From positions 64,001-124,208 of the forward strand of contig CAZYXV010000012.1 in assembly GCA_964651475.1 (NCBI GenBank): DNA of 60,208 bases, read 5' to 3'. Numbering within the stretch: position 1 is the stretch's first letter; each line of letters starts with the position of its first letter. The position numbers and the translations under genes were made by a program. Of this stretch, positions 9,265 to 56,057 are shown in pieces. This stretch comes from an uncultured Anaerolineae bacterium (GTDB taxonomy: Bacteria; Chloroflexota; Anaerolineae; Fen-1058). The notes below the pieces were generated by a model. It saw only the letters and a program-made list of their open reading frames with translations. It had not been told where the DNA came from and searched no databases.

Positions 9265-10013
9265 TCCTTGCTGCCCACGACGATAAAAATATCCACTGCC
9301 CCCATCGGCTGGCGGCTGTGAGAGATTGAAAACCCCGCCTCGCGGGCGGCGGCCCACGCCGGAGGAGGCGGAGCGCCACGCTGGCCGGTGATGGTGTACA
9401 GCCACTCGAGGACGCGGTTGAGCAGGTTGTACCCGCCGCGCCGGTTGAACGCAATGCCCGGCACAATCACCAGCCGCCCCGTCGTATTGAGCGCGCGCAC
9501 GGCCTCGCGCAAGGTGGCCGGCTCGACGATAAATTCTGTTGGAAACGTAGACACCACCGAATCGAACGCCCCGTCGCGAAAGGGCAACGCCTGGGCGCGC
9601 GCGCGCACCAATGGCGCCGGCGTTCCCGCCCGTTGCAAACGGGAACGCGCCTGCCGCCCCATGTCTGGCGAGAGATCAAGCCCCACCACCTGCCATCCTT
9701 GTTGGCGCATAGCGGCCAGCAAATGCCCCGGTCCGTGCGCCAGTTCCAAAATGCGCTGCCCGCGCAGGTGAGGCAAGGCTGTGCGCCCCCACGCCGTCCA
9801 CTGCCCCAAAGAGACTACCCAGGCGACGGCGTCATACGCCCACGCCATCTGATGATACAGCAGGCGAAAGAAAACGCGAATCAGCAAACGCACAGATCTC
9901 TCCTGGTGTGGACAATTGCTTGCAAACGTTTGGGGCAAGCCAGGCAGATGATACCACAAGACGTGTAACGCGCAACTGCTACAAATTCTTTTCCGAATGG
10001 TCTTGCCCGTCAA
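9252..10013 (-). CDS. Class I SAM-dependent methyltransferase (UbiE/COQ5-like, type 11)
   Basis: 253 aa. Motif I ILELAHGPGHLL, then VVGLDLSPDM and a post-I acidic loop. Confidence 0.7.
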   Translation of the reverse strand: MTGKTIRKRICSSCALHVLWYHLPGLPQTFASNCPHQERSVRLLIRVFFRLLYHQMAWAYDAVAWVVSLGQWTAWGRTALPHLRGQRILELAHGPGHLLAAMRQQGWQVVGLDLSPDMGRQARSRLQRAGTPAPLVRARAQALPFRDGAFDSVVSTFPTEFIVEPATLREAVRALNTTGRLVIVPGIAFNRRGGYNLLNRVLEWLYTITGQRGAPPPPAWAAAREAGFSISHSRQPMGAVDIFIVVGSKDHSA

Positions 10014-20217: not shown

Positions 20218-21252
20218 TCAGGCGAGGGCCAGTTTCTGGGCAAGTTGGCGCGCCAGCTCAAGCGGCCTATCCAGCCACGTGGCGCGGCTCACGGCCCACG
20301 CCGACAGCCCCCCCAGCCACGCGCCGGCCACGATATCGAGCGGAAAGTGGACGCCGCTGCACACGCGCGCCACGGCCATCGCGCCGGCCAGCGCCAGCAT
20401 CCACGTTCCCCACCGTCTCTCATACAGCCATACCGCCGCCGCCAGCGCCACGCTCACGGTTGCCGCGTTGCTGGGAAAGGACGAGTCGGAGGGATGGTAA
20501 AAGAGCAAAGTGACCGGCCAGGTGGTAAAGGGGCGCGGGCGAAAGTAGATCAGGTTAATCAACTTGAGGATAATGCTGGCTATTGCGAGCGCCAGCAAAG
20601 CTCGCAGCACGGTTGATTGGAGGGCGGCGCGTTGAGCCGGCGATGACCCGGCGAACCACAGCCCGAGCAGCGTCAGGACGAGTGCCGTGGGCACCATATA
20701 ATCGTTGATGAAAAATTGAAATATCCCGTCGAGCAAAGCAGAGCGCCCGGCCAGGCCATTGAGAATGCGAAAGAGCGGCAGGTCATACAGGCCGATCAAG
20801 GCAGAAAGTATCAAAGTGGAAAGTAGAAAGCGGAAGGTGGGATGCCGAAGCTGGTTTTGGAGAAAATGGCTTGCCTGGTCGGTGGAGGGACTGCTGATGG
20901 AGGGTGGGGCATCAACAAACATAGATCGTAACCGGGCCAGCCCGCGCGTCAGCCCTAATGCCAGCAAAACGGATAGCCCGAACAACGCCGTCAATTCTCC
21001 TCCGGCAGGACCCGGGGTGAGCAGTTCGGGTGCCAGGAACCAATAGATGGCGAACGCGCCAGCCGTCCACGCACAAGCCACGACAAAACCCGCACGCCAA
21101 TGATTCGACGGCGCTAAAAAGATCAAGGCTCGATTCTGGCTGGCCAGGGCGGCGGCTTGCAGCACGCCCAGCGCAGCCGCGACCGCAAAGAGTATATAAT
21201 TGATTGCCAGGTAAGCTGGAACGTAAGCGCGCATAGGCTCAATTATACACAA
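20218..21252 (-). CDS. Integral membrane PAP2-family lipid phosphatase
   Basis: 344 aa, multiple TM helices. C-terminal PAP2 motifs KxxxxxxRP (FRPRPF), PSDSSFPSNAAT (PSGH-like) and SGVHFPLD (SRxxxxxHxxxD). Confidence 0.75.
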   Translation of the reverse strand: MCIIEPMRAYVPAYLAINYILFAVAAALGVLQAAALASQNRALIFLAPSNHWRAGFVVACAWTAGAFAIYWFLAPELLTPGPAGGELTALFGLSVLLALGLTRGLARLRSMFVDAPPSISSPSTDQASHFLQNQLRHPTFRFLLSTLILSALIGLYDLPLFRILNGLAGRSALLDGIFQFFINDYMVPTALVLTLLGLWFAGSSPAQRAALQSTVLRALLALAIASIILKLINLIYFRPRPFTTWPVTLLFYHPSDSSFPSNAATVSVALAAAVWLYERRWGTWMLALAGAMAVARVCSGVHFPLDIVAGAWLGGLSAWAVSRATWLDRPLELARQLAQKLALA

Positions 21253-39257: not shown

Positions 39258-41144
39258 TTATTCCACCGTCACGCTTTTGGCCAGGTTGCGCGGCTGGTCC
39301 ACGTCCGCGCCGCGCCGCACGGCCAGGTGATAGGCCAGCATTTGCAGCGGCAGCACGGCCAGCGCCGGCGTGAGCAGCGCCGAGGCGCGCGGGATGTAGA
39401 GCACGTAATCGGCTTTTTGCTGGATGGCCTCGTCGCCCTCGGTCGCCACCGCGATGACTGTGCCGCCGCGCGCCTTGACTTGTTCCACCTGGCTGATCAT
39501 TTTGTCGTATACGTTGTCTTGCACGGCAATCGTCACCACCGGCATCCGCTCGTCAATCAGCGCAATGGGGCCGTGCTTCATTTCTCCGGCGGGATAGCCT
39601 TCGGCGTGGATGTAGCTGATTTCCTTTAATTTCAACGCGCCTTCCAGCGCGATGGGATAATTGATGCCGCGCCCCAGGTACAAAAAATGCTCGCGGTCGT
39701 GAAAGCGATTGGCCAGGTCCTCGTAAATGGTGGGCGGCTGTTTCATATAGGCGCCGCCCGCCACCTGGAAGCGCTGCTGCCCTTGCGCCAGCACCTGCCC
39801 CATCAAATCGGGTAGGCGGCTAAGCTCGTCTGCCCATTCGCGCCTGCCCCCGCCGTTGCGCAACTGCCCCAGGTAACACCCCAGCATGTACTCGGCTACC
39901 AGCGAGGCCGTAAAGGCTTTGGTGGACGCCACGCCGATTTCCGGCCCGGCCTGCATCAAAATCGTCCCATCCGACAGGCGGTGCGCCTGCGAGCCGACGA
40001 CGTTGACAATGCTCCACAACAGCGCGCCCTTGTGTTTGGCTTCTTCCATGGCGGCCAGCGTGTCTACTGTTTCGCCGGATTGGGTGATGGCCAGCACCGC
40101 CGTGCGCGGCGTGATGATCGGATCGCGGTAGCGGAACTCGCTGCCGTATTCCACCTCCACCGGCACGCGCGCCAGCTCTTCGATGATAAATTTGCCCACC
40201 AGGCCGGCATAGTACGACGTGCCGCACGCGACGATAAAAATTTTTTCGATCTGCCGCGCCCGCTCGGCCGCCAGGTGTAAATCGTCCAGGATCATGTGCC
40301 CGCGCGCCAGGTCAACCCGTCCGCGAATCGTATCGGTGACCGAGCGCGCCTGTTCATAGATTTCTTTTTGCATAAAGTGGCGATATTCGCCTTTGGCCGC
40401 CGCGACCGGGTCGTAGGGAATGGTGTGCACGGGCAACTCGATCCGCTCGCCGCTGTCCAGCGAGGTGATCTTGACCCCGTCGCGCAGCACCACCGCCATT
40501 TGCCGGCTCTCCAAAAATATCATCTGCCGTGTGTGGTCGAGGATGGCGGGCATGTCAGACGCGATAAACATCTCGCCCTGGCCGATGCCCACCGTCACGC
40601 CGCCGGCGTTGCCGATGCGCGCGCACACCAGCCGGTCCGGCTCCAGCCGGCTCATCAGCACGATGCCGTGCGCGCCTTTGAGCTGCGCCAGCGCGCGGCG
40701 CGCGGCGTCTTCGAGTGATGCGCCCTCGTTGACGTAACTTTCGACCAGGTGGACGATGACTTCGGTGTCCGTTTCTGACGCGAAGGCGTGCCCCGCCGCC
40801 TTGAGTTGTTCGCGCAGCTCGTGGAAATTTTCCACGATGCCATTGTGGATCACCACCAGGTTGCCCGTGCAATCGGTGTGGGGATGGGCGTTCATTTCGC
40901 TGGGCTGGCCGTGCGTGGCCCAGCGCGTGTGCCCCATGCCAATGCAGCCTTTGAGCGGCTGCTCCAGCAAGGCGCTGCCCAGGTTTGCAAGTTTGCCTGT
41001 GTTGCGGCGCACGCCAATGCCGCCATTGTGCTCGACGACGGCAATGCCGGCGCTATCGTAGCCGCGATATTCCAGGCGATGCAACCCTTCCATGATGATG
41101 GTGGTTGCATCGCGATGACCTACGTAACCTACAATTCCACACAT
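39258..41144 (-). CDS. glmS: Glutamine--fructose-6-phosphate aminotransferase (isomerising)
   Basis: 628 aa. MCGIVGYVG N-terminal nucleophile, two SIS domains, C-terminal ...SVTVE. Confidence 0.95.
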   Translation of the reverse strand: MCGIVGYVGHRDATTIIMEGLHRLEYRGYDSAGIAVVEHNGGIGVRRNTGKLANLGSALLEQPLKGCIGMGHTRWATHGQPSEMNAHPHTDCTGNLVVIHNGIVENFHELREQLKAAGHAFASETDTEVIVHLVESYVNEGASLEDAARRALAQLKGAHGIVLMSRLEPDRLVCARIGNAGGVTVGIGQGEMFIASDMPAILDHTRQMIFLESRQMAVVLRDGVKITSLDSGERIELPVHTIPYDPVAAAKGEYRHFMQKEIYEQARSVTDTIRGRVDLARGHMILDDLHLAAERARQIEKIFIVACGTSYYAGLVGKFIIEELARVPVEVEYGSEFRYRDPIITPRTAVLAITQSGETVDTLAAMEEAKHKGALLWSIVNVVGSQAHRLSDGTILMQAGPEIGVASTKAFTASLVAEYMLGCYLGQLRNGGGRREWADELSRLPDLMGQVLAQGQQRFQVAGGAYMKQPPTIYEDLANRFHDREHFLYLGRGINYPIALEGALKLKEISYIHAEGYPAGEMKHGPIALIDERMPVVTIAVQDNVYDKMISQVEQVKARGGTVIAVATEGDEAIQQKADYVLYIPRASALLTPALAVLPLQMLAYHLAVRRGADVDQPRNLAKSVTVE

Positions 41145-41288
41145 AGTTCCTCCGTATCTTGTCGAGGGGCGGCCGCAAGGGTTCGCCTCTACGTTTTCCC
41201 TTTTTCAACGCGAAAAAGGGCCAGTTGACTTTTGCTCTGCATAGTGGAAAGGGGGGGGATCGGCAAACAAAAAAGGCACGCCAGGCGT

Positions 41289-41567
41289 GCCTGTACAAGT
41301 CACCCCTCTATGCAATTCCACACCGGCGTACCCGCACAAGGGTGCCTGCCAGTGACCACTGCGGGCGTTTTAATCGGCGGGTTACCCGCGCCGTTTTGTC
41401 GCGCCGCTTGATTCGAGGGGAAAAACGCGGGGTGTGGCGCCCCGGGAGGCATCCGCTGATCTGTTCGATTTTCTCCCGGCGAACGGGCCGCTCGCCAGGA
41501 TTAGCCTCGCCTCGCGGCGAGGAACCTCCACCTCGTTATCCTTGCCTGCTTGCAAGGATCCATACGC
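41289..41567 (-). ncRNA. glmS ribozyme (GlcN6P-responsive self-cleaving riboswitch) in the glmS 5' leader
   Basis: - strand RNA: ...AU-AGCGUAUGGAUCCUUGCAAGCAGGCAAGGAUAACGAGGUGGAGGUU[hairpin insert]...AAUCGAACAGAUCAGCGGAUGCCUCCCGG...AGAGGGGUGACUUGUACAGG. This matches the remembered B. subtilis core A^GCG...GACGAGG.GGAGGUUAUCGAA...GGCGGAUGCCUCCCGG...AAGGGGGUGAC. A GC hairpin plus U6 follows. Confidence 0.7.
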
Positions 41568-41605
41568 TATCGTTTCCCGATATATTTAGTTGTTGGATTG
41601 TGCGC

Positions 41606-41633
41606 CATGTTAACGCATCTGGCTCAAAAGTCA
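41606..41633 (-). promoter_or_regulatory. Candidate sigma70-like promoter for the glmS ribozyme-glmS transcript
   Basis: - strand TTGACT, 16-nt spacer, TAACAT. About 30 nt upstream of the predicted ribozyme cleavage site. Confidence 0.4.
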
Positions 41634-41675
41634 AGCGCCCGGCGTTAGGCCGTTAGCCTGCGTGGGAGCGCCCTC

Positions 41676-41701
41676 CCCGGCCTGTCGGCCAGGACAGGCC
41701 G
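41676..41701 (-). terminator. GC-rich hairpin downstream of the lipoprotein gene, upstream of the glmS promoter
   Basis: Perfect 10-bp stem CCGGCCTGTC / GACAGGCCGG with a 6-nt loop. No U-tract. Confidence 0.3.
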
Positions 41702-41799
41702 GGCGCGATAGTCGCGCCTGCCTGCCTGGCGGCTAGACAGGAAAGGCGCTCCTACGAGACTCGTACAGCTTGCCCGGTCGGCGGGCAGGTTTCAGGCGA

Positions 41800-42516
41800 T
41801 TAAGGGATATACCACTTGAACGGGATTTGGATCTCGGTGACAACTTTTACCGTCCCGGGATTGTCCGGCACGGCTGAAAAGATAGTCAGCGTGAGTATGG
41901 ACTCAAAGGTCCCGCCGGTCGGCGCGCCGCCATCCACGTAGACGCAAAAGTCGGCTGTGAATCCCTGGCACTGTTTCTGATCGTCGCATACCCCTTTGGC
42001 GGTTTGGATCTTGATGTTGGGACGGGCGTATTGGGGATAGACTGACCAGTTCCTGTCCCAATAGTACATTCTTCGCTCCGGCTCGCCCACGCCTTCTTCC
42101 CACGGATACGATGCGCTCACAAACTTGTTGACGCAGCTTTCCCCGCCTGGGGGCGCCACCAGGTCTACGCCGGATGGGGCCGGCGGCGCGGTGGGTTGTG
42201 GGGCGGCAGTAGGTGATTTAGTGGGCGCGGGGGTCCTGGTGATGGGGCGCGGCGTGCTCGTCGGCGTTAGCGTGGGCGGCGCGGGCGTCTTGGTGGCCGT
42301 GGGCGGCAGGGGCGTTTGGGTGGCCGTGGGGCGCGGCGTGTCGGTCGAGGTGGGGGTCAGGGTGGGCGTGCTCGTCGGCGTGCTCGTCGGCGATGGCGTA
42401 TCGGTAGGCGGCGGCTCGGTGGGGGTGGCGGTCGGAGCCGGCGGGCTGGCGCAGCCGGCGAGCATAAAGACTGCAATCAGCATGTAGACCCATGAGACAA
42501 ACAAGCGTCGTGTCAT
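41800..42516 (-). CDS. Lipoprotein with a long Pro/Thr-rich linker and a C-terminal domain of unknown function
   Basis: 238 aa. Signal plus lipobox LAGC, about 90 aa of PT-rich linker (TPTSTPTLTPTSTDTP...), and a globular C-domain with 4 Cys. Confidence 0.6.
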   Translation of the reverse strand: MTRRLFVSWVYMLIAVFMLAGCASPPAPTATPTEPPPTDTPSPTSTPTSTPTLTPTSTDTPRPTATQTPLPPTATKTPAPPTLTPTSTPRPITRTPAPTKSPTAAPQPTAPPAPSGVDLVAPPGGESCVNKFVSASYPWEEGVGEPERRMYYWDRNWSVYPQYARPNIKIQTAKGVCDDQKQCQGFTADFCVYVDGGAPTGGTFESILTLTIFSAVPDNPGTVKVVTEIQIPFKWYIP

Positions 42517-42576
42517 ATTCTCCTTCCAAATTTTATTATGACTGCCCTGGCTCGACGTGAGCTTGTTGGCAGTTGA

Positions 42577-43974
42577 TCACAGATCGTTTGCCCGCAGCAC
42601 GCGATGGATGACGTCGCCCATGGTGTCCACCGCGGCTACCGGGCGGTGGAGCGCGGCGGCGATATCTTGCGGCGTCACGTCGTCCAGGCTCGCGCCGCTG
42701 GGATGATCGAACATGATGCGCGGCAACACCAGGCGCTCTCCCAGCTCGCGGCCTCGCAGTTGTTCGATGACGTCTTTCGCTGTGAGCAGCCCTGCCACCG
42801 TCACCGTTTCGCCAAAGCGGCGATTCACAATCGGGATCACCTCTATCCTGGCGCCGGTCAATGCGCTCAACTCGTCCGCGGCCTGGCGCAGCGTGGGCGC
42901 GAACAAGGTTCCGGTTACGAGCGAGATGTCGGATGTCTGATGTCTGATTTCGGATTTCGGATGTGGTCGGTGGCCGGCTTTCACTTGCCACTTTTTACTT
43001 TCTACTTTTAACTTTCCATTTTCCACTTTCCACTCGTCCAGAAACTCGCGCGCCATCCCCAGCCCGTTTTCTTGCAACTGCAGGCCGTCATAGTGAGCGC
43101 GGGGGGGAACGCGCCGCCCCAGGGCCAGGTACCACTCGTCGGTGGCGTACACAAAACGCGCGCCCAGTTCTGGCTTGAATTGTTTTTGCCAGGCGTGAAC
43201 GGACTGGAGCACGGCCTTCATTTCATCCGGCGTGTTGATGCGCTGGCCGCGTTTGTGGCAGCGCGTGATGCCGACCGGGACGATGCTGACCGAGCGCACG
43301 GCGGGATAGAGGCTTGCCAGGTCCAGGATGCTGCGCTCCAGAATCGCGCCGTCGTTCAGGCCAGGCGTGACGACCAGTTGCGTGTGCGTTTCGATGCCGC
43401 GCCGGGCCAGCCAGCGCAGTTGCCGCATCACGTCTGGGGCGTTGGGGTTGCCTAATACCTGGCGGCGCGCCTCGAGCGGCGTGGCGTGGACGCTGATGTA
43501 CAACGGCGATAGATGCTGCCGCTCGATGCGTTTCCAATCGCGCTCGCTCAGATTGGTCAGCGTGACGTAATGGCCGAACAAAAAGCTGTAGCGATAATCG
43601 TCGTCTTTGACGTACAGCGAGCGGCGCATGCGGGGCGGCATTTGGAGCACAAAGCAGAACGGGCACACGTTGTTACAGCGGCGAATGTCCGTATCGAACG
43701 TGGGGTGCGCAAATTCCAGCCCGAGCGTTTGACCGCCGCCGCGTTCGCCGCTCACGGTCAACTCGTCCGCGCCGCGCCGGAGGCGGAGTTCGACGTGCTC
43801 GTCGGCGGCGTAAAATTGCACGTCAATGATGTCTTGGACGGGGTGACGATTTACGGCTACCAGTTCATCGCCGGGACGCGCGCCCAGCTTTTCGGCCAGG
43901 CTGCCCGGCTCGACGGCGGTGATGCGCCCGCCCGGTACATGGTGTTTAGAGGTCACATGCTCTTTGTTTGGCAT
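42577..43974 (-). CDS. PDZ-domain / radical-SAM-like (CxxxCxxC) / DUF512-family protein carrying an in-frame low-complexity insertion
   Basis: 465 aa. N-terminal PDZ (ITAVEPGSLAEKLGARPGDELVAVN), CNNVCPFC Cx3Cx2C, DUF512-like C-terminal region. Codons about 315-350 are encoded by tandem heptanucleotide repeats. Confidence 0.7.
   Translation of the reverse strand: MPNKEHVTSKHHVPGGRITAVEPGSLAEKLGARPGDELVAVNRHPVQDIIDVQFYAADEHVELRLRRGADELTVSGERGGGQTLGLEFAHPTFDTDIRRCNNVCPFCFVLQMPPRMRRSLYVKDDDYRYSFLFGHYVTLTNLSERDWKRIERQHLSPLYISVHATPLEARRQVLGNPNAPDVMRQLRWLARRGIETHTQLVVTPGLNDGAILERSILDLASLYPAVRSVSIVPVGITRCHKRGQRINTPDEMKAVLQSVHAWQKQFKPELGARFVYATDEWYLALGRRVPPRAHYDGLQLQENGLGMAREFLDEWKVENGKLKVESKKWQVKAGHRPHPKSEIRHQTSDISLVTGTLFAPTLRQAADELSALTGARIEVIPIVNRRFGETVTVAGLLTAKDVIEQLRGRELGERLVLPRIMFDHPSGASLDDVTPQDIAAALHRPVAAVDTMGDVIHRVLRANDL
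42925..43032. repeat. Two blocks of degenerate heptanucleotide tandem repeats inside the radical-SAM/DUF512 ORF
   Basis: + strand GATGTCG GATGTCT GATGTCT GATTTCG GATTTCG GATGTGG (6 units), a 10-nt spacer, then CTTTCAC TTGCCAC TTTTTAC TTTCTAC TTTTAAC TTTCCAT TTTCCAC TTTCCAC (8 units). Total 108 nt = 36 codons, frame preserved. The - strand units are GGAAAGT-like and CGAAATC-like. Confidence 0.6.
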
Positions 43975-44161
43975 ACGGAGGGTTGGGTATCAGGTATTGA
44001 GTATTTGACCTTGATCATCGTTTCGGCCATTTTTACCGCAGAGACGCAGAGGTCGCCGAGTTTTCAATTGATTTTCCTCTGCGTTCTCCGCGTCTCTGTG
44101 GTGCACTGCCGCCGCGTGGCCCAAAGGATGACCGACGCCGAGTATTTGGTAGTGGCGGCGC

Positions 44162-44815
44162 TCAAGCGTATGCCCCGCGCATGTCTGGCGGCAACAGCCT
44201 GGCGATTTGCCGCATCGCTTCGTCGGTCATTTGGGTCAGGGCTTCGCGGCGGGCGTGCGGCTGCCCCTTTCCAAGGTAAAACGCCGGCCCAATCACCAGG
44301 TTGACGTTTGTGCGCTTGAAGCGGCGGAGATTGTGTTTGAATTGCGCCGTACCCGTAAAGGCGAGCGGGACGAGCGGCGCGCCCGAGCGAGTGGCGATAA
44401 AGGCCAACCCGCCCAGCCCGCGTTGCAATTGGCCGGATGAACTGCGCGTGCCCTCGGGCGATATCCACAACGGCAAGCCGGCCTCCAGAACGTGCAGCGC
44501 CGTGTGCAGCGCCTGGCGGTCCACCTCGCCGCGGAGCACCGGGAAAGCGTCAAAAGCGCGCGCCAGCGGGCCAATGATTTTGTCTTCCAGGTTTTCAATC
44601 TTGGACATGGGGATGACGGGGCGCGGCAGCATGCCGACGACGAGAACAGGGTCGAGAAAGCTGATGTGGTTGCTGATGAGAATCGCGGGGCCTGTGATAG
44701 GAATGTTCTCGATGCCGGCGATTTTCAAGTTTAACGTGGCCTTGACCACCACGTGCATTGCAAAGGTCAGAACGCGGCGAATCAGGCTAGGGCGATAGTG
44801 TGTAAAATCACGCAT
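44162..44815 (-). CDS. plsC: 1-acyl-sn-glycerol-3-phosphate acyltransferase (LPAAT)
   Basis: 217 aa. HX4D motif NHISFLDP, plus FPEGTRS-like (SPEGTRSSSG). Confidence 0.8.
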   Translation of the reverse strand: MRDFTHYRPSLIRRVLTFAMHVVVKATLNLKIAGIENIPITGPAILISNHISFLDPVLVVGMLPRPVIPMSKIENLEDKIIGPLARAFDAFPVLRGEVDRQALHTALHVLEAGLPLWISPEGTRSSSGQLQRGLGGLAFIATRSGAPLVPLAFTGTAQFKHNLRRFKRTNVNLVIGPAFYLGKGQPHARREALTQMTDEAMRQIARLLPPDMRGAYA

Positions 44816-44911
44816 TTATCTCCTCGGCTATCTACGCGGATTTGCGCAAAGGTAGATAGCGGGCTGACCCGAACGAGGCTAATTATAGCGCAAATCGCGC
44901 GCGCCGCCAGG

Positions 44912-45589
44912 CTACGCCCAATAGCCCCGGTACGCTTGCGGCAACAGTTGCGCGATGTGCTGCATGATGATGCTGTGCGCGGCTTGTATGGACTGGCGCT
45001 GGTGGGCGCCGGCCTGCGCGGCGACGTGAAATGGCGCGCCTACGTTCACGTGGATGCTTGGGCGGGTGCGCTCGCGCCACGCGCTGTAGACGTGTTGCGT
45101 GCCGGTGATGCCCACCGGCACGACGGGCGCGCCGCTTTTCAAGGCCAGGTAGGCTGCGCCTTCGCGGCCTTGTTCCAGGGCGGCCGTGGGGCTTTGACGC
45201 GCCTCTGGCGCCAGGGCCAGGAGCGCGCCTCGTTTCAATACGTCCATCGCGGCGCGAATCACCTGGCGGTCGTATTGATCCCGGTGGATGAGGATGACGC
45301 CATAGGCGCGCAATGCCAGGTTGGTGCCGGGCACGCTCATCAGGTCGGCCAACGCGATACATTCCGGCGCGCGCGGGGCCAGGGCAACCACGAGCAAACT
45401 ATCCAGGTGCCCCAGGTGGTTAAAGGCGATGATGGCGGCGCCATAGGAGGGAATGTGATGCAGCCCTTCGACGTTCAGGCGGGCGGCCAGGCGCAGCCAC
45501 GCGCGCAATGCAGGCCGGATGATTTGACGAAAGGCGCGTTGGGGCGCGCCCACGTTATGCGCCAGGGTCATCTTGCGTTCTTGCATCAT
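44912..45589 (-). CDS. plsC: 1-acyl-sn-glycerol-3-phosphate acyltransferase paralog
   Basis: 225 aa. NHLGHLDS HX4D motif and a PEARQS (PEGTRS-like) block. Confidence 0.75.
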   Translation of the reverse strand: MMQERKMTLAHNVGAPQRAFRQIIRPALRAWLRLAARLNVEGLHHIPSYGAAIIAFNHLGHLDSLLVVALAPRAPECIALADLMSVPGTNLALRAYGVILIHRDQYDRQVIRAAMDVLKRGALLALAPEARQSPTAALEQGREGAAYLALKSGAPVVPVGITGTQHVYSAWRERTRPSIHVNVGAPFHVAAQAGAHQRQSIQAAHSIIMQHIAQLLPQAYRGYWA

Positions 45590-47121: not shown

Positions 47122-48660
47122 TCAGGCGATGGTCACCGGCGCCAGCGCCTCTTGCCTGGCTGTGGCCAACGTGCGCCTGACGCTATCCAGCAGCTTTTCA
47201 ACGGCAAAAGGCTTGGCGATGTGTTCGGCGGCGCCCCAACTAGGGCCGGAGGTCTTGGGCTGCAGCACCGAGACGATAATCACGGGGATGTCGGCCGTCT
47301 TGGCGTCGGACTTGAGCATGCGCAGCACCTCGATGCCATTGACGTCGGGCAGCATCATGTCCAGCGTGATCAGGTTGATCCGCTGGCGGCGCGCGACGAC
47401 CAGGGCTTCGTGTCCGTGCGAGGTGGTAATCACCTCAAAGCCGTCGCGCCGCAGCGACAGGGCGATCAACTCGGCGATGTCTTGATCGTCTTCTACGACC
47501 AAAACCGTGGGAGCTGTTTTTGCGCCGCCCGTGTCTCCGTTCGTCTCGGCCGCGTGCAGGGGCAAGATAAATGTAAAGGTGCTGCCCTTGCCCAACTCGC
47601 TTTCCACCCACAGGCGCCCGCCGTGCATTTCCACCAACATCTTGGTGATGGGAAGTCCCAGGCCGGTGCCGCTGACTGACTGCACTGTGGAATCCTTGAC
47701 CCGGTAAAAGCGTTGAAAGACCTTGCTCTGGTCTTCGGGCGCAATGCCAATGCCGGTATCGCGCACGTCCACCCGCACCACGCCGTCCGAGCACGATAGC
47801 GCCAGCGTGATGCGCCCCCCCTCCGGCGTGTAGCGATGAGCATTGCTCACCAGGTTTGTCACGATCTGGATGAGGCGGTTTCTATCGCCCAGCACCGGCC
47901 CAATGTTCGGCTCGATGTGAACGTCCAGCGCCAGGTTCTTTTGAGCGCATTGTTGGTGGAGCAAATCGGCGACTTCCTGGATGACGGTTTCCATTCGAAC
48001 CGGGTGAATGTTTAGCTCTAGCCGCCCGCTTTCGATGCGGCTGATATCCAGCAAGTCGTTAATCAGCGTCACCAGGCGGTTGGCGTTGCTCTGAACGATC
48101 TGCAAAAAGCGAGCTTGCTGCTCGTTGAGCGGCCCGACGGCGGGGGAGAGCAGCAGGTCGCTGTAGCCTTTGATGGCCGTGAGGGGTGTGCGCAGCTCGT
48201 GGGAGACGTTGGACACGAAATCGGTTTTGGCCCGTTCGGCTTCCACCTCGCGCGTGATGTCGCGCAGCACGGTGACGATGCCCAGGAATTCACCCATCTC
48301 GGTCAAGACGGGCGAGAGATGCGCCTGGATGACCCGCATGCCGATTTCGATCATTGTCTCGGTAATGCCCTCGCCTGGCGCGTACGAGTAGGGGTCTGCG
48401 TTCAGGCGGTCCAGGGCGTCTACCATGGTCAAACGACCACGGGTCGAGAACGACTCGAACAACTTTCGGACCGGCATCCCCAGCGCGGCGGCGGGGTCAA
48501 CCTGCAACATGCGCCCCGCGGCCGGATTCAGCCACGTCACTTCTCCAGTCACATTGTTAACGATCACGCCATCGGCGATGGACACCAGGACGGCGCGCTC
48601 GATCAACAAGTTGGATTCCGCGTGCGGTACAGCCGTTTGTGTTTGGGTCTCTTTCATCAT
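47122..48660 (-). CDS. Hybrid sensor histidine kinase (PAS, HisKA, HATPase_c, C-terminal receiver)
   Basis: 512 aa. H-box SHELRTPLTAIKGYSDLL, G-boxes, C-terminal REC (TVLVVEDDQDIAELIAL...LDMMLPDVNG). Confidence 0.85.
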   Translation of the reverse strand: MMKETQTQTAVPHAESNLLIERAVLVSIADGVIVNNVTGEVTWLNPAAGRMLQVDPAAALGMPVRKLFESFSTRGRLTMVDALDRLNADPYSYAPGEGITETMIEIGMRVIQAHLSPVLTEMGEFLGIVTVLRDITREVEAERAKTDFVSNVSHELRTPLTAIKGYSDLLLSPAVGPLNEQQARFLQIVQSNANRLVTLINDLLDISRIESGRLELNIHPVRMETVIQEVADLLHQQCAQKNLALDVHIEPNIGPVLGDRNRLIQIVTNLVSNAHRYTPEGGRITLALSCSDGVVRVDVRDTGIGIAPEDQSKVFQRFYRVKDSTVQSVSGTGLGLPITKMLVEMHGGRLWVESELGKGSTFTFILPLHAAETNGDTGGAKTAPTVLVVEDDQDIAELIALSLRRDGFEVITTSHGHEALVVARRQRINLITLDMMLPDVNGIEVLRMLKSDAKTADIPVIIVSVLQPKTSGPSWGAAEHIAKPFAVEKLLDSVRRTLATARQEALAPVTIA

Positions 48661-52681: not shown

Positions 52682-55600
52682 ATGAAACAACTCACTCGCA
52701 TCCGCCTCATCAACTGGCATTTGTTTGAAAACGCCGCCATCTCGTGCAACGGCACGACCTACTTTATCGGCGTCAACGGCGCGGGCAAGTCTACGATCCT
52801 GGACGCGATCCAGTTCGCGCTGGTGGGCGGGCAGCGCGAGGTCAAGTTTAACCAGGCGGCGCTGGCCGGCGGCAAGCGCACGCTCGCCAGTTACGTGCGC
52901 GGCGAACTGGGCACCGAAGGTCAGCGTTTTTTGCGCGACGACGCGACCGGCGTGGTGGCGCTTGAATTTCGCAATCCCGATAATTCGTACTTTGTGCACG
53001 GCGCGGTGATTGATGCTTATGCCGATGGCCGCGCGCCGGAGGTAATGTATTTTATCGTCAACAATGCCGCGCTCGACGATGGCTGGTTTTTTCGCGAGTC
53101 TCCCATTTCACCCTCTGCGGGGGCTTGCGGGACAGGCGGCAAGCTGTTTGACACGCGCGCCTTCAAGCGCCATCTAGAACATTTCGCTCTGCCCACGGGC
53201 GGGCGCGCCCAGGCCTTTGGCCGCCTGGAAGATTACCGCTTTCATTTGCTCAATCGCCTGGGCCAGCTCAAAGACACTTTTCCGGCCAAGATTGTCAAAG
53301 GGTTGGCCTTTAGCCCGCTCATCAATATCCGCGAATTTGTCCACAACTATTTGCTGGACGAAAACCTGGTGGACGTGAAAACATTGCAAGATCAACTGGA
53401 AACGCTGCGCCACTTTGAAGCGCTGGCGGCCAATGTGCGCGAGCGGATTGCGGCGCTGGACCACATTGAGGAATTGGATCAGGAACGTGTAGCGAATCGC
53501 CGCCGCCGCCTGACCAACGGCCACATTCAACGCCGCGCGCGGGGCGATACACATCTGGCCCAGCTCAAACGCTTTCGCCTGGAATTGGAAGAAGCGCGCG
53601 TCGAGTTGTCCCGCGCTGCGCTCAAGCGCGACATTTTGGACCAAGACCTCAAGCGCGCCCGCCAGGCCTTGCTCGACGCGCAGGTGGCGCTGCAAACCGA
53701 TGCGACCGCGCTGCGCGAAAAAGAATTGCGCGACAAGATTGCCTCTCTGGAAAATGAGGCGCGCGCGCTGGCCGAACGCGAGGCGCGCGTGACTGAAACA
53801 TTGGCCCGCGAGGTCCAAGATGCGCAGATATTGCGTCAATGCCTCGTCAAAGATCGCATGTCTATTCCGCCATCATTAGATGAATTCATTCAATCTGATC
53901 AAAGTGTGGATTGCATTGTCCGGCTGCAAGCCGACTTGGAAATTTTGGGGCACACGTTTGCCGAACAAAACGCATTGTTGGGTGAACAGTCGCGTCGATT
54001 GCGCGACGAGGCCGAGCAGTTGCAGCGCGAGATCGTACAACTGCGCACGGGTGACCGCGACGCCAGCTACGAGGCCGAAGCGCCCGAAGCCGCCCGCCTG
54101 CGTCGCCTGTTGCGCGCCGAGTTGGGGTTGGGCGCAGACGAGGCCGTGTTTCTATGCACCGTTTTGCAAATCCCTGATGAATCCTGGCAAGACGCGGTTG
54201 AGGGCGTATTGGGCAACACGCGCTTCAACTTGCTGGTGCCGCCTGAACATTACGACGCCGCGATGCGGCTTTACCGCGAGCGCCGCCACGCGGACAATTT
54301 GCACGGGGTCGGCCTGCCGGACATTGAGCGAATCTTGAGTCGAACGGGCCAGACAGGTGTTTCGCAAAACCTGTCAGGTCTGGCAAGTGAGGTTCAAACG
54401 CAGCACGCGGGCGCGCGCGCATTGGTAGATTTGCTGCTGGGCCACGCGGTCAAATGCGATACGTTGGACCAGTTGCGCGAGCATCGCACCGCCATAACGC
54501 GCGAGTGTTTTTTGCGCCGCAACTATACCACCAGCCACATGAATCCGCGCGTTTACCGCCGCTGGTTCATCGGCGACCGGGCCGTGCCGCGCCAGATCGA
54601 GCAGCGCGAAGCCCGGCTCGAAGAGATTCGCGCCGAATTGCTGGCGCTGCAAGATCAAGCCAGCGCACTGCGCGAACGCCTGGCGCTCACTCGGGACAAG
54701 ACGCGCCTGTACTTTGACCTGGAACGCGACCTGGACGAGTTGGCGAGCCTGCCCGTCAGAACGGCGCAACTGGCCGCGCTGCAAGACGAGCTATCGCGCC
54801 TGGATACGCAAACCATTGAGGCCCTGCGCGCGCAAGTTGACGCGCGCCGCGCGCAGGCTGACGGTTTGCAAGCCGAGCTTTCGGAATTGGACAAGCATAT
54901 CGGCGGAGTGGACATGCGCGCCAAGACGTTGAATGACGAAACCATTCCCACCGTGGAGCGCGAGGCCGATCAGGCCGCGCAAAGCGCGCTGGCCTTTTTG
55001 CGTTTTGAGCAGGCCGAGGATGCGCTGGACGAGGTCAACAAGGAATATGAACGCCGCCGGGAACGGCAGCCGCTCGAAACTGTGCTGCAAAACGCCACGC
55101 GCTACGAAAGCGAATATCAAAGCGCCGAAACGCGCAGCCGCGACCGCTTGCGCGAGGCCAAGCAAGCCTATAGCCTGAAATACGATTTCGGTTACGACGA
55201 GGACGAAGACGCCGCGCGTTACGTCCGCGAGCGCGACAAGTATATGCAGTCGGAACTGCCGCAGTACGAGGAGCGCATTACGGCGCAGCGCAAGTTGGCC
55301 GAGCAAGAACTGGTGGAAAATTTCATCCATCGCCTGCGCGAACAGATCGAAGACGCGCGCCAGCAATTGGGGCATCTCAATACCACGCTGGCAGGACTGC
55401 GCTTTGGCGGCGAGCGCTTTGAATTTATCACGCGCCCCGAACCCACGCTGCGCCCGGTGTACGATATGGTGATGGACAGCCAGGAGGTTTTGGGCAAATC
55501 ATTGTTCGAGTCCGATTTTCGCCAAAAGCACCAGCAGGGCTGGGATGTGTTGTTCGAGCATTTAACGGTGGGGCAGGCCGGTGATGCCGCCGTGGAACTG

Positions 55601-56032
55601 CGCCAATTGCAGGATTACCGCAACTATTTGCAGTACGACATTCGCATCCACTATCCCAATGGCGACCACGCGCTGCTCAGCCAGATCAACGCCAAAAAAT
55701 CCGGCGGCGAAACGACCACGCCGTTTTACGTGGCCATGGCGGCCTCGTTCGCGCAAGCCTATCGCCTCAACCAGCCGCGCGCCTCGGACACCATCCGGCT
55801 GGCGTTGTTCGACGAAGCATTCAGCAAAATGGATACGGCCCGCACCGCCAGCGCGCTCAAGTTTATGGTCGAGACGCAATTGCAAGTGCTGCTGGCGACG
55901 CCGCCCGACAAGGCGACGGGACTCTTGCCTTACGTGGATTGTGTGCGGACGGTGGTGCGCAAGGATAATCACTCGTTCGTCATCGAAATGGACAAGGCTG
56001 AGCTGGTGGGCGAGTTGGAACGTACTGCGTAA
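52682..56032 (+). CDS. jetC: Wadjet system protein JetC (MksF/MukB-like SMC-family ATPase)
   Basis: 1116 aa. N-terminal Walker A FIGVNGAGKSTILDAIQFAL, very long Arg/Glu/Leu/Ala/Gln-rich coiled-coil arms, C-terminal ABC signature KSGGETTTPFYVAMAASFAQ and Walker B RLALFDEAFSKMD. Confidence 0.85.
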   Translation: MKQLTRIRLINWHLFENAAISCNGTTYFIGVNGAGKSTILDAIQFALVGGQREVKFNQAALAGGKRTLASYVRGELGTEGQRFLRDDATGVVALEFRNPDNSYFVHGAVIDAYADGRAPEVMYFIVNNAALDDGWFFRESPISPSAGACGTGGKLFDTRAFKRHLEHFALPTGGRAQAFGRLEDYRFHLLNRLGQLKDTFPAKIVKGLAFSPLINIREFVHNYLLDENLVDVKTLQDQLETLRHFEALAANVRERIAALDHIEELDQERVANRRRRLTNGHIQRRARGDTHLAQLKRFRLELEEARVELSRAALKRDILDQDLKRARQALLDAQVALQTDATALREKELRDKIASLENEARALAEREARVTETLAREVQDAQILRQCLVKDRMSIPPSLDEFIQSDQSVDCIVRLQADLEILGHTFAEQNALLGEQSRRLRDEAEQLQREIVQLRTGDRDASYEAEAPEAARLRRLLRAELGLGADEAVFLCTVLQIPDESWQDAVEGVLGNTRFNLLVPPEHYDAAMRLYRERRHADNLHGVGLPDIERILSRTGQTGVSQNLSGLASEVQTQHAGARALVDLLLGHAVKCDTLDQLREHRTAITRECFLRRNYTTSHMNPRVYRRWFIGDRAVPRQIEQREARLEEIRAELLALQDQASALRERLALTRDKTRLYFDLERDLDELASLPVRTAQLAALQDELSRLDTQTIEALRAQVDARRAQADGLQAELSELDKHIGGVDMRAKTLNDETIPTVEREADQAAQSALAFLRFEQAEDALDEVNKEYERRRERQPLETVLQNATRYESEYQSAETRSRDRLREAKQAYSLKYDFGYDEDEDAARYVRERDKYMQSELPQYEERITAQRKLAEQELVENFIHRLREQIEDARQQLGHLNTTLAGLRFGGERFEFITRPEPTLRPVYDMVMDSQEVLGKSLFESDFRQKHQQGWDVLFEHLTVGQAGDAAVELRQLQDYRNYLQYDIRIHYPNGDHALLSQINAKKSGGETTTPFYVAMAASFAQAYRLNQPRASDTIRLALFDEAFSKMDTARTASALKFMVETQLQVLLATPPDKATGLLPYVDCVRTVVRKDNHSFVIEMDKAELVGELERTA

Positions 56033-56057
56033 TGCGTATTGCGTAAGGGCGTGCGTT

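Follow-up and report, generated by a model that had tools for sequence, protein, structure and literature searches.

A degenerate heptanucleotide repeat array within the predicted interdomain linker of a DUF512-family radical-SAM protein from an uncultured Anaerolineae bacterium

In a 60,208-nucleotide stretch of DNA from an uncultured Anaerolineae bacterium (Chloroflexota; GenBank assembly GCA_964651475.1, contig CAZYXV010000012.1, positions 64,001 to 124,208; hereafter the window), the gene for a 465-residue protein with PDZ, radical-SAM and DUF512 domains carries sixteen consecutive heptanucleotide units that are translated in frame. The array is a genuine and highly non-random heptanucleotide repeat, and in our judgement it is probably a slippage-born, now decayed coding microsatellite that sits in a permissive linker of a cobalamin-dependent radical-SAM enzyme and has no specific role. 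The gene and the parts of the array are located as follows.

42577 to 43974, minus strand: host gene, PDZ_6, Radical_SAM_2 and DUF512 domains, 465 residues (open reading frame list and Pfam)
42921 to 43032, minus strand: whole heptanucleotide array, 16 units, codons 315-350 plus 4 nt (Tandem Repeats Finder and unit list)
42977 to 43032, minus strand: block A, eight TGGAAAG-type units (unit list)
42963 to 42976, minus strand: block B, two CGRCCAC units, CGGCCAC and CGACCAC (unit list)
42921 to 42962, minus strand: block C, six ATCNNNN units, namely ATCCGAA twice, ATCAGAC twice, ATCCGAC and ATCTCGC (Tandem Repeats Finder and unit list)

Structure of the array

Positions 42921-43032 form one unbroken 7-nt register on the coding strand. 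From 43032 downwards, units 1 to 8 read TGGAAAG, TGGAAAA, TGGAAAG, TTAAAAG, TAGAAAG, TAAAAAG, TGGCAAG and TGAAAGC, and units 9 to 16, reaching down to 42921, read CGGCCAC, CGACCAC, ATCCGAA, ATCCGAA, ATCAGAC, ATCAGAC, ATCCGAC and ATCTCGC; together they encode, in frame, the linker WKVENGKLKVESKKWQVKAGHRPHPKSEIRHQTSDI. The repeat had been picked up in an initial annotation made from the letters alone, whose coordinates, unit types, peptide and frame statement agree with Tandem Repeats Finder, the unit list and the open reading frame (ORF). Its description of the tract as an AT-rich stretch inside a GC-rich ORF is equally correct, with a G+C content of 0.44 in the tract versus 0.64 in the remainder of the gene. 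The two blocks that it distinguished are real, but the GC-rich 'spacer' that it placed between them itself consists of two heptamers in the same register, which brings the total to 16 units.

Tandem Repeats Finder reports two arrays here, one at 42925-42964 (GATGTCG, 5.7 copies, 87% matches) and one at 42978-43034 (CTTTCCA, 8.3 copies, 76% matches). The self-identity of the tract reaches 0.70 at lag 7 and 0.64 at lag 14, with all other lags from 1 to 13 falling between 0.22 and 0.33, while lag-7 identity in 2994 other 112-nt windows of the 60 kb has a mean of 0.252 (standard deviation 0.045, maximum 0.448). A sliding scan for period 7 recovered 3 tracts in the window versus 0 in 10 shuffles. 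The units are moreover ordered by likeness: the Hamming distance averages 2.07 between adjacent units and 4.41 between non-adjacent ones, and none of 10,000 permutations of the unit order gave a value as low. Such likeness of neighbours is the signature of local duplication that marks a heptanucleotide simple-sequence repeat (SSR). The longest perfect run within it is 17 nt (2.4 units).

Host protein and position of the linker

The 465-residue product matches PF17820 (PDZ_6, 5.5e-14), PF19238 (Radical_SAM_2, 1.3e-58) and PF04459 (DUF512, 8e-52) in Pfam, the PDZ domain being N-terminal, the radical-SAM-like domain in the middle and DUF512 C-terminal. Against TIGR03279 it scores 387.5 bits, below the curated cut-off of 574.7, and by the NCBI threshold it is a relative of this family rather than an equivalog. 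The nearest solved structure is 9cg1_A, a DUF512 protein of Clostridium sporogenes (E=6e-77 over residues 18-457); in this enzyme, csDUF512, residues 1-80 form the PDZ domain, 81-266 the radical-SAM domain and 267-443 a Rossmann-like domain that binds cobalamin, and a DDD motif has been described (PMC11659888). A protein search with the window product returned more than 7000 relatives, of which the best 120 were used; the named ones are all Chloroflexota metagenome-assembled genomes (MAGs; Thermoflexales, Anaerolineales, Anaerolineae), and 30 of the 120 were aligned (alignment A1). Throughout these 30 orthologues C100, C104 and C107 of the CX3CX2C cluster motif, as well as D124-D126 of the DDD motif, are invariant. 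With cluster motif, DDD motif, PDZ domain and DUF512 domain all present, the product is assigned, by sequence, to the cobalamin-binding radical-SAM family typified by csDUF512.

To place the tract within the fold we relied on the alignment with 9cg1_A and on an AlphaFold model of the window protein built from 30 orthologues (mean predicted local distance difference test score, pLDDT, 76.8). In the alignment, 15 residues of the window protein (~331-345) are unmatched, just before the strand aligned to 'fSLITGq'. The model has a helix at 304-332, a coil at 333-348 (pLDDT <50 at 335-344) and a strand at 349-355. Because of this gap and of the predicted order of helix, coil and strand, the tract is modelled as the segment that joins the helix to the first strand of the cobalamin-binding domain at the C-terminus. 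Block A is predicted to extend the helix 304-332 (block-mean pLDDT ~72-75 over residues 311-330), and block C is modelled as the low-confidence coil just ahead of the strand 349-355.

The start of the array is informative as to its origin. The first unit, TGGAAAG, comprises the codon of Trp315, that of Lys316 and one further base, and alignment A1 shows W315 with a conservation of at least 90%. Since the first unit consists of these native codons, the array grows out of native sequence, and it probably arose in place, by replication slippage. The initial annotation had taken the 36 codons as an insertion. Extra length does exist, but it comes to only about 15-20 codons net (15 relative to the solved Clostridium homologue, ~20 relative to the 33-residue clostridial linker and ~19 relative to L011, which has the shortest Chloroflexota loop), and none of the orthologues lacks a linker here.

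Orthologous linkers

The best 120 of the more than 7000 relatives span 408 to 535 residues, and nearly all length variation in alignment A1 falls into one block, delimited by a conserved ENGLGMxRxFLxxW helix and a conserved (T)LVTGxLFAP strand. Several of the loops in this block resemble translated heptamer repeats, namely KSQISNLKSQ, KSEIGGPKSEIRNLKS, TSNQQPVTSNQQPATSNQQP and LKARNLKPETRNLK. We then considered the loop DNA of 80 orthologous loci from species-representative genomes, all of them Chloroflexota, with same-length windows from the remainder of the same genes as controls. Among the periods 2-12, period 7 came out strongest in 45 of these 80 loops, compared with 95 of 1528 control windows (6%), and in 37 loops the lag-7 identity lay above the 99th percentile of the controls. 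An additional locus outside the scored set, L006, runs off its contig; its loop is intact and has period 7. The view that such a tract is out of the ordinary in this type of gene is therefore wrong for this lineage, where about half of the orthologues have period-7 linker DNA.

The clostridial orthologues behave differently. Among 119 full-length proteins with 61-99% identity to the crystallised one, nearly all have 444-445 residues, the standard deviation of protein length being 3.9 compared with 19.5 in Chloroflexota. The linker is constant at 33 residues in the clostridial examples examined, as opposed to 35 distinct values in 116 Chloroflexota proteins. Judged by this fixed linker length, period-7 linker DNA appears to be absent from the clostridial orthologues, and because these keep a constant linker over a similar range of identity, linker variability belongs to the lineage and is not inherent in the fold. 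Also within clusters of >90% identical proteins from other species, differences in length and sequence concentrate in the loop.

The two nearest relatives show how the array itself has changed. L081, at 76% protein identity, has 7-8 degenerate TGGAAAG-type units with other substitutions than the window, followed by CGACCTC and (CGACATC)x3; a single 24-nt in-frame block differs between the two, and block C is shorter in L081. In L083, at 65% identity, three perfect TGGAAAG units are followed by units of CGACCAC type and these by nine of CAGCAAC type. Orthologues that carry the same peptide on non-repetitive codons, named in the initial annotation as the finding that would speak against it, did not turn up, as L081 and L083 carry the same repeat. 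Since both share the array, it predates the splits from L081 and L083. The array has since been turned over by gain, loss and mutation of units, and only frame-preserving outcomes are seen in the window, L081 and L083. The protein of L083 (P0004) additionally has a 41-residue insertion, SNESEGISQPVGHKATAHRRGAENAEETLTTWPLRPCGENGQG, which lies ahead of the radical-SAM domain within the C-terminal portion of the PDZ region (A1 columns 113-153), and a repetitive N-terminus, MTTDHRPMTTDASRL.

These comparisons bear on whether the tract entered the linker as a small mobile or dispersed repeat that was inserted in frame, such as a miniature inverted-repeat transposable element, a repetitive extragenic palindromic element or an equivalent of the Rickettsia palindromic elements (RPEs), which we regard as very unlikely. 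The tract is indeed AT-rich relative to its gene, another gene at a distance of 22 kb holds a second GGAAAGT-type array, the loop hairpin of Promineifilaceae and Ardenticatenaceae relatives resembles intergenic hairpins of the same loci, and palindromic elements of Rickettsia are known to insert in frame into metabolic genes (PMC10969869). However, the tract does not fold (RNA z = -0.11 and +0.68), its composite sequence has no other copy in the 60-kb window, and the similarity of its units decays with distance, as local duplication predicts. Local slippage is preferred over a foreign insertion because the first unit is native, adjacent units are alike, inverted repeats, terminal ones included, are absent within and flanking the tract, no target-site duplication was seen on reading the flanks, and the array is already present, with differing unit numbers, in the nearest relatives (76% and 65% identity). 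As these relatives share it, any insertion would be ancient and would have evolved by slippage anyway. The initial annotation had offered, as one of its two readings, a short-tandem-repeat or mobile insertion tolerated in a surface loop; a tolerated repeat is supported by the present data, while mobility is without sign and the native linker has been partly replaced.

A selected role could alternatively reside in the peptide or in the nucleic acid, for instance in spacing of the cobalamin domain, in partner binding, in a translational pause ahead of the folding of the last domain or in an internal start at GTG331. Congruent with such a role, the number of block A units is kept between the window and L081, block A is predicted to be helical, the clade makes recurrent use of the site, and hairpin-type loops elsewhere keep complementarity while the stem sequence changes. 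On the other hand, the loop sequence is unconserved between lineages and its length range is wide, it differs even within the 90%-identity clusters, the clostridial homologues, including the crystallised enzyme, do without the tract, and the window tract itself lacks RNA structure, an Rfam match and a significant promoter or terminator signal. We thus consider a selected feature unlikely.

Three further candidates were rejected for the tract. A hairpin or cruciform is ruled out by the fold scores given above together with the lack of inverted repeats. The search for an internal promoter or terminator gave one weak antisense terminator-like match at 42964-42976 (1 match compared with a shuffle mean of 2.4). 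Transcriptional slippage or programmed frameshifting was dismissed on a reading of the sequence only, A-runs being no longer than 5 nt and no in-frame X XXY YYZ site being present.

Reading frame and unit number

As seven is not a multiple of three, gain or loss of a unit shifts the frame, as the initial annotation rightly noted: simulated changes of one or two units in either direction lead to stops at residues 319-328, whereas with three units the frame is preserved. On this ground it had raised phase variation as its second reading, that is, a contingency locus where slipped-strand changes in the number of 7-nt units switch between the full-length protein and a form truncated before the cobalamin-binding core. 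Heptamers do drive phase variation elsewhere, for example as (ATCTTTC)n with n=11-24 in the Haemophilus influenzae hmw1A promoter (PMC8262952), and perfect arrays are found in some orthologues, such as (AATTATC)x5.7 at 100% in L075. Against this stand the degenerate units of the window, with a longest perfect run of just 2.4 units and Tandem Repeats Finder matches of 76-87%, and a block A count that is about the same (7-8) in L081 at 76% protein identity. A 2308-nt contig identical to the window was moreover present in 14 samples (consensus assemblies), the loop is in frame in all 80 orthologues, with no OFF allele among the relatives, and the gene lies in a conserved neighbourhood and is not a surface or restriction-modification gene. 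A phase switch in a radical-SAM gene is a tempting idea, but it is without supporting evidence, and we hold it to be extremely improbable.

Hairpin-type loops in other lineages

In some of the orthologous loops the repeats are arranged differently. Thirteen of the 80 fold far better than their shuffles (z < -3), compared with 2 of 80 control windows, and in these hairpin-type loops the two halves are reverse-complementary heptamer arrays, with stem sequences that differ between lineages. A loop of the form (GGAGATT)n-spacer-(CAATCTC)n is present in the Promineifilaceae/Ardenticatenaceae relatives L024, L041, L076, L020, L050 and L079, GGAGCGA/TCGCTCC forms the stem in L009, and different stems are found in L012, L018 and L046.

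The first of these hairpins is not confined to the linker. Dispersed (GGAGATT)~4-loop-(CAATCTC)~4 hairpins occur in Promineifilaceae, Ardenticatenaceae and Leptofilum at about 1 per 5 kb, intergenic sites included, at the following positions.

L020, 12359-12421: dispersed GGAGATT/CAATCTC hairpin
L041, 12333-12394, 18332-18393 and 19255-19314: dispersed GGAGATT/CAATCTC hairpins
L043, 4042-4105: dispersed GGAGATT/CAATCTC hairpin
L057, 12979-13042: dispersed GGAGATT/CAATCTC hairpin
L076, 8095-8162 and 12356-12412: dispersed GGAGATT/CAATCTC hairpins

The DUF512 loop of the hairpin-bearing genomes has the same structure (RNA fold z down to -7.9). Because the same hairpin recurs at intergenic sites of these loci, the DUF512 loop may, in the families with the GGAGATT hairpin, have captured the dispersed repeat or exchange with it. 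This scenario does not apply to the window's own tract, but among the observations made here it is the one for which simple tolerance accounts least well.

Proposed origin

Taken together, we favour an origin of the window tract by slippage, followed by decay. Polymerase slippage on the 7-nt repeats would have added units, and only frame-restoring changes would have survived, that is, gains or losses of three units (21 nt, 7 residues) or compensated combinations, with purifying selection holding the tract in frame. Point mutations would then have broken up the repeat, so that the tract would by now be no more mutable than ordinary DNA. Its product would be a hydrophilic helix extension followed by a flexible coil, without a specific role, and the tract as a whole would be the by-product of a lineage-wide mutational bias and not a regulatory device.

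Several points weigh against this reading. Slippage is inferred and not observed: the evidence on alleles comes from consensus assemblies, and a search of Joint Genome Institute (JGI) metagenomes for length alleles with exact flanks and an 89-119-nt gap returned no contigs. The cluster of the window protein, furthermore, has a single member. Although the window and L081 differ by many substitutions, the TGGAAAG block has 7-8 units in each of them, a constancy that could also reflect selection on the length of the helix extension. In the lineages with hairpin loops (13 of 80), these hint at more than neutral slippage, the options there being structure-mediated mutation, insertion of a dispersed hairpin element and selection on RNA or DNA structure. 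Finally, tolerance by itself does not fully account for the presence of such arrays in this one linker throughout a class.

Heptamer repeats elsewhere in the window and the clade

Heptamers are widespread in this group. Running Tandem Repeats Finder on 1.26 Mb of DNA, made up of the window and the 80 loci, yielded 127 period-7 arrays after the removal of overlaps, along with 29 of period 14 and another 9 of period 21, as compared with 3 of period 6, 22 each of periods 8 and 9, and 51 of period 12; period 7 is thus the commonest tandem-repeat class in this related DNA. Of the arrays with period 7, 14 or 21, 90 of 165 lie inside long stop-free stretches. As such stretches cover 87% of the bases, heptamer-class arrays are enriched between genes, while many are still intragenic.

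Two further heptamer features of the window are relevant here.

20795 to 20835, minus strand: second GGAAAGT-type array of period 7/15 (CTTTCCA on the coding strand), in the ORF of a PAP2-family phosphatase at 20218-21252, minus strand (Tandem Repeats Finder, pattern match, Pfam PAP2)
43985 to 44010, minus strand: weak three-unit run AATACTC, AATACCT, GATACCC, 11-36 nt upstream of the start codon (found by eye, below the Tandem Repeats Finder threshold, and of uncertain significance alone)

The first of these answers in part the suggestion that more heptamer arrays should be sought: one GGAAAGT-type array was found in the 60-kb window, but no second GATGTCK array, the only extra match to the latter being a chance-level one with 2 mismatches at 47287. 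As in the DUF512 protein, the array site of the PAP2 orthologues (alignment A2) is a length-variable linker with 7-residue-periodic peptides such as SNFKFQISNFKFQ and DDRRPTTDDGRPTTDN. Some PAP2 orthologues also have a recurring segment of about 25 residues, e.g. CHSEPRSGEESLSHKRETL, which we suspect to be a translated dispersed repeat.

As for the second feature, arrays directly upstream of the DUF512 start are found in L001, L003, L020, L039, L040, L041, L044, L058, L061 and L076 (~9850-9996), built from units such as CGGTAAT, CCGTAAT, TCAGTAA, CGGATTA, TAATGGT and others in up to 9 copies. The leader of the window gene has no obvious Shine-Dalgarno sequence. It also contains, between the acyltransferase and DUF512 genes at 44035-44102, an inverted repeat, ACCGCAGAGACGCAGAGG...CCTCTGCGTTCTCCGCGTCTCTGTGGT, with 26-nt arms that are 81% complementary and a 16-nt loop, present as a single copy in the window. 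At the other end of a gene, four CGTAATG-type units, CGTACTG, CGTAATG, CGTATTG and CGTAAGG, at 56021-56048 straddle the TAA stop (56030-56032) of a 1116-residue ORF (52682-56032, plus strand) and continue into the intergenic spacer.

A wider proposal can be put forward tentatively, and we would not yet call it the probable one: the linker before the cobalamin-binding domain may be a self-perpetuating hot spot for coding microsatellites in Anaerolineae-type Chloroflexota, with other linkers such as that of the PAP2 phosphatase behaving alike. Arrays would be born, expanded, mutated and replaced there, in some families as perfect inverted arrays that form hairpins like those scattered through intergenic DNA nearby, and repeat DNA would be turned into protein under no constraint but that of frame.

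Gene neighbourhood

The DUF512 gene is embedded in a conserved neighbourhood together with cytidylate kinase and two acyltransferases, and in several loci a glmS-like gene lies downstream. In L081, L083-L086 and the window (39258-45589) the order is cytidylate kinase, one or two PlsC-type acyltransferases and then DUF512; downstream of DUF512, L085 and L086 have a flavodoxin and a GATase/SIS (glmS-like) gene, and the window has a Pro/Thr-rich gene and a glmS-like ORF. These conserved neighbours may point to a lipid or cell-envelope setting for the DUF512 enzyme.

In the window, the gene adjoining DUF512 downstream (41800-42516, minus strand) encodes 238 residues with a long Pro/Thr-rich segment (PTxTPTSTP...), for which a Pfam search gave no match, and its DNA contains 27-nt and 12-nt tandem repeats at 42271-42392. 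The ORF beyond it (39258-41144, minus strand, 628 residues) was read as glmS from sequence, and the ~650 nt upstream of it (41145-41800) are without a convincing ORF. A search of the whole window against Rfam at gathering thresholds gave no match, the glmS ribozyme included.

Relation to known repeats

The window tract belongs with the known heptanucleotide SSRs of bacteria. Heptanucleotides are the most abundant long SSRs in most bacterial genomes, and polymerase slippage has been suggested as their origin (Mrazek 2007, as summarised in PMC4692102 and PMC4679880); the head-to-tail units of the window array fit this description, and at the level of the clade the Chloroflexota arrays share with long SSRs, as portrayed in these summaries, the dominance of heptamers, fast turnover and some inverted pairs. 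According to the account in PMC4679880, long SSRs are however mostly intergenic, with intragenic repeats mainly in multiples of 3, whereas the window array is translated within an enzyme. Unlike them, the Chloroflexota heptamers also recur at one orthologous linker across many species. Dedicated studies of heptamers are few in the accounts of PMC4692102 and PMC4679880, covering Xanthomonas GGGAATC, Nostoc GGGGAYT, Calothrix and Beggiatoaceae TAACTGA.

Of these, the TAACTGA repeats of marine Beggiatoaceae are abundant and mostly located just upstream of starts, a minority of them lie inside or overlap ORFs (25 ORFs), and in the stop-free orientation they give 7-residue periodic peptides that are tolerated mainly at the protein periphery (PMC4679880). 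The orthologous DUF512 loci are alike in having arrays right upstream of the start codon. On the other hand, Beggiatoaceae have one favoured unit genome-wide while here there are many units, with several in a single array, and the window tract is found where two domains meet within the protein and not at one of its ends.

The short tandemly repeated repetitive sequences (STRRs) of heterocystous cyanobacteria are similar in being families of tandem heptanucleotides dispersed in the genome (Calothrix report, as cited in PMC4692102). They come from another phylum and have other units, and membership of the window array among them is not claimed. Cyanobacterial STRRs comprise a few defined unit families. 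We know of no report of these repeats as translated linkers.

With the tract of Haemophilus influenzae hmw1A/hmw2A, the window array shares the 7-nt unit, the number of which changes there by slippage (PMC8262952). The hmw tract consists of 11-24 (ATCTTTC)n units in a promoter, is polymorphic between isolates and controls a surface adhesin (PMC8262952), whereas the window tract is degenerate, coding, invariant in the available assemblies and found in a conserved metabolic gene neighbourhood. In the case of the RPEs (PMC10969869), the likeness lies in repetitive DNA becoming protein at structurally permissive positions, and for the loops of hairpin type in L024, L041, L076 and others they provide the best analogue. 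RPEs are however ~150 bp long, with a conserved peptide and defined families, while the window tract is non-palindromic and looks locally generated.

Implications

As a single locus, the window tract is of modest interest; the recurrent use of the linker and the hairpin variants in relatives are more noteworthy. A literature search found no paper on heptanucleotide arrays in Chloroflexota, and if the hot-spot proposal is true, it would constitute, in a phylum for which we found no such description, the counterpart of cyanobacterial STRRs and RPEs. In this class of Chloroflexota, 7-nt repeats are the main tandem type and, where translated in permissive linkers, give low-complexity peptides of 7-residue periodicity and large length differences between otherwise conserved orthologues. 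Such tracts explain odd AT-rich low-complexity inserts in proteins from MAGs, and errors of assembly or frame are likely to arise there. They would also mark structurally dispensable positions, for instance for tagging or shortening DUF512 enzymes.

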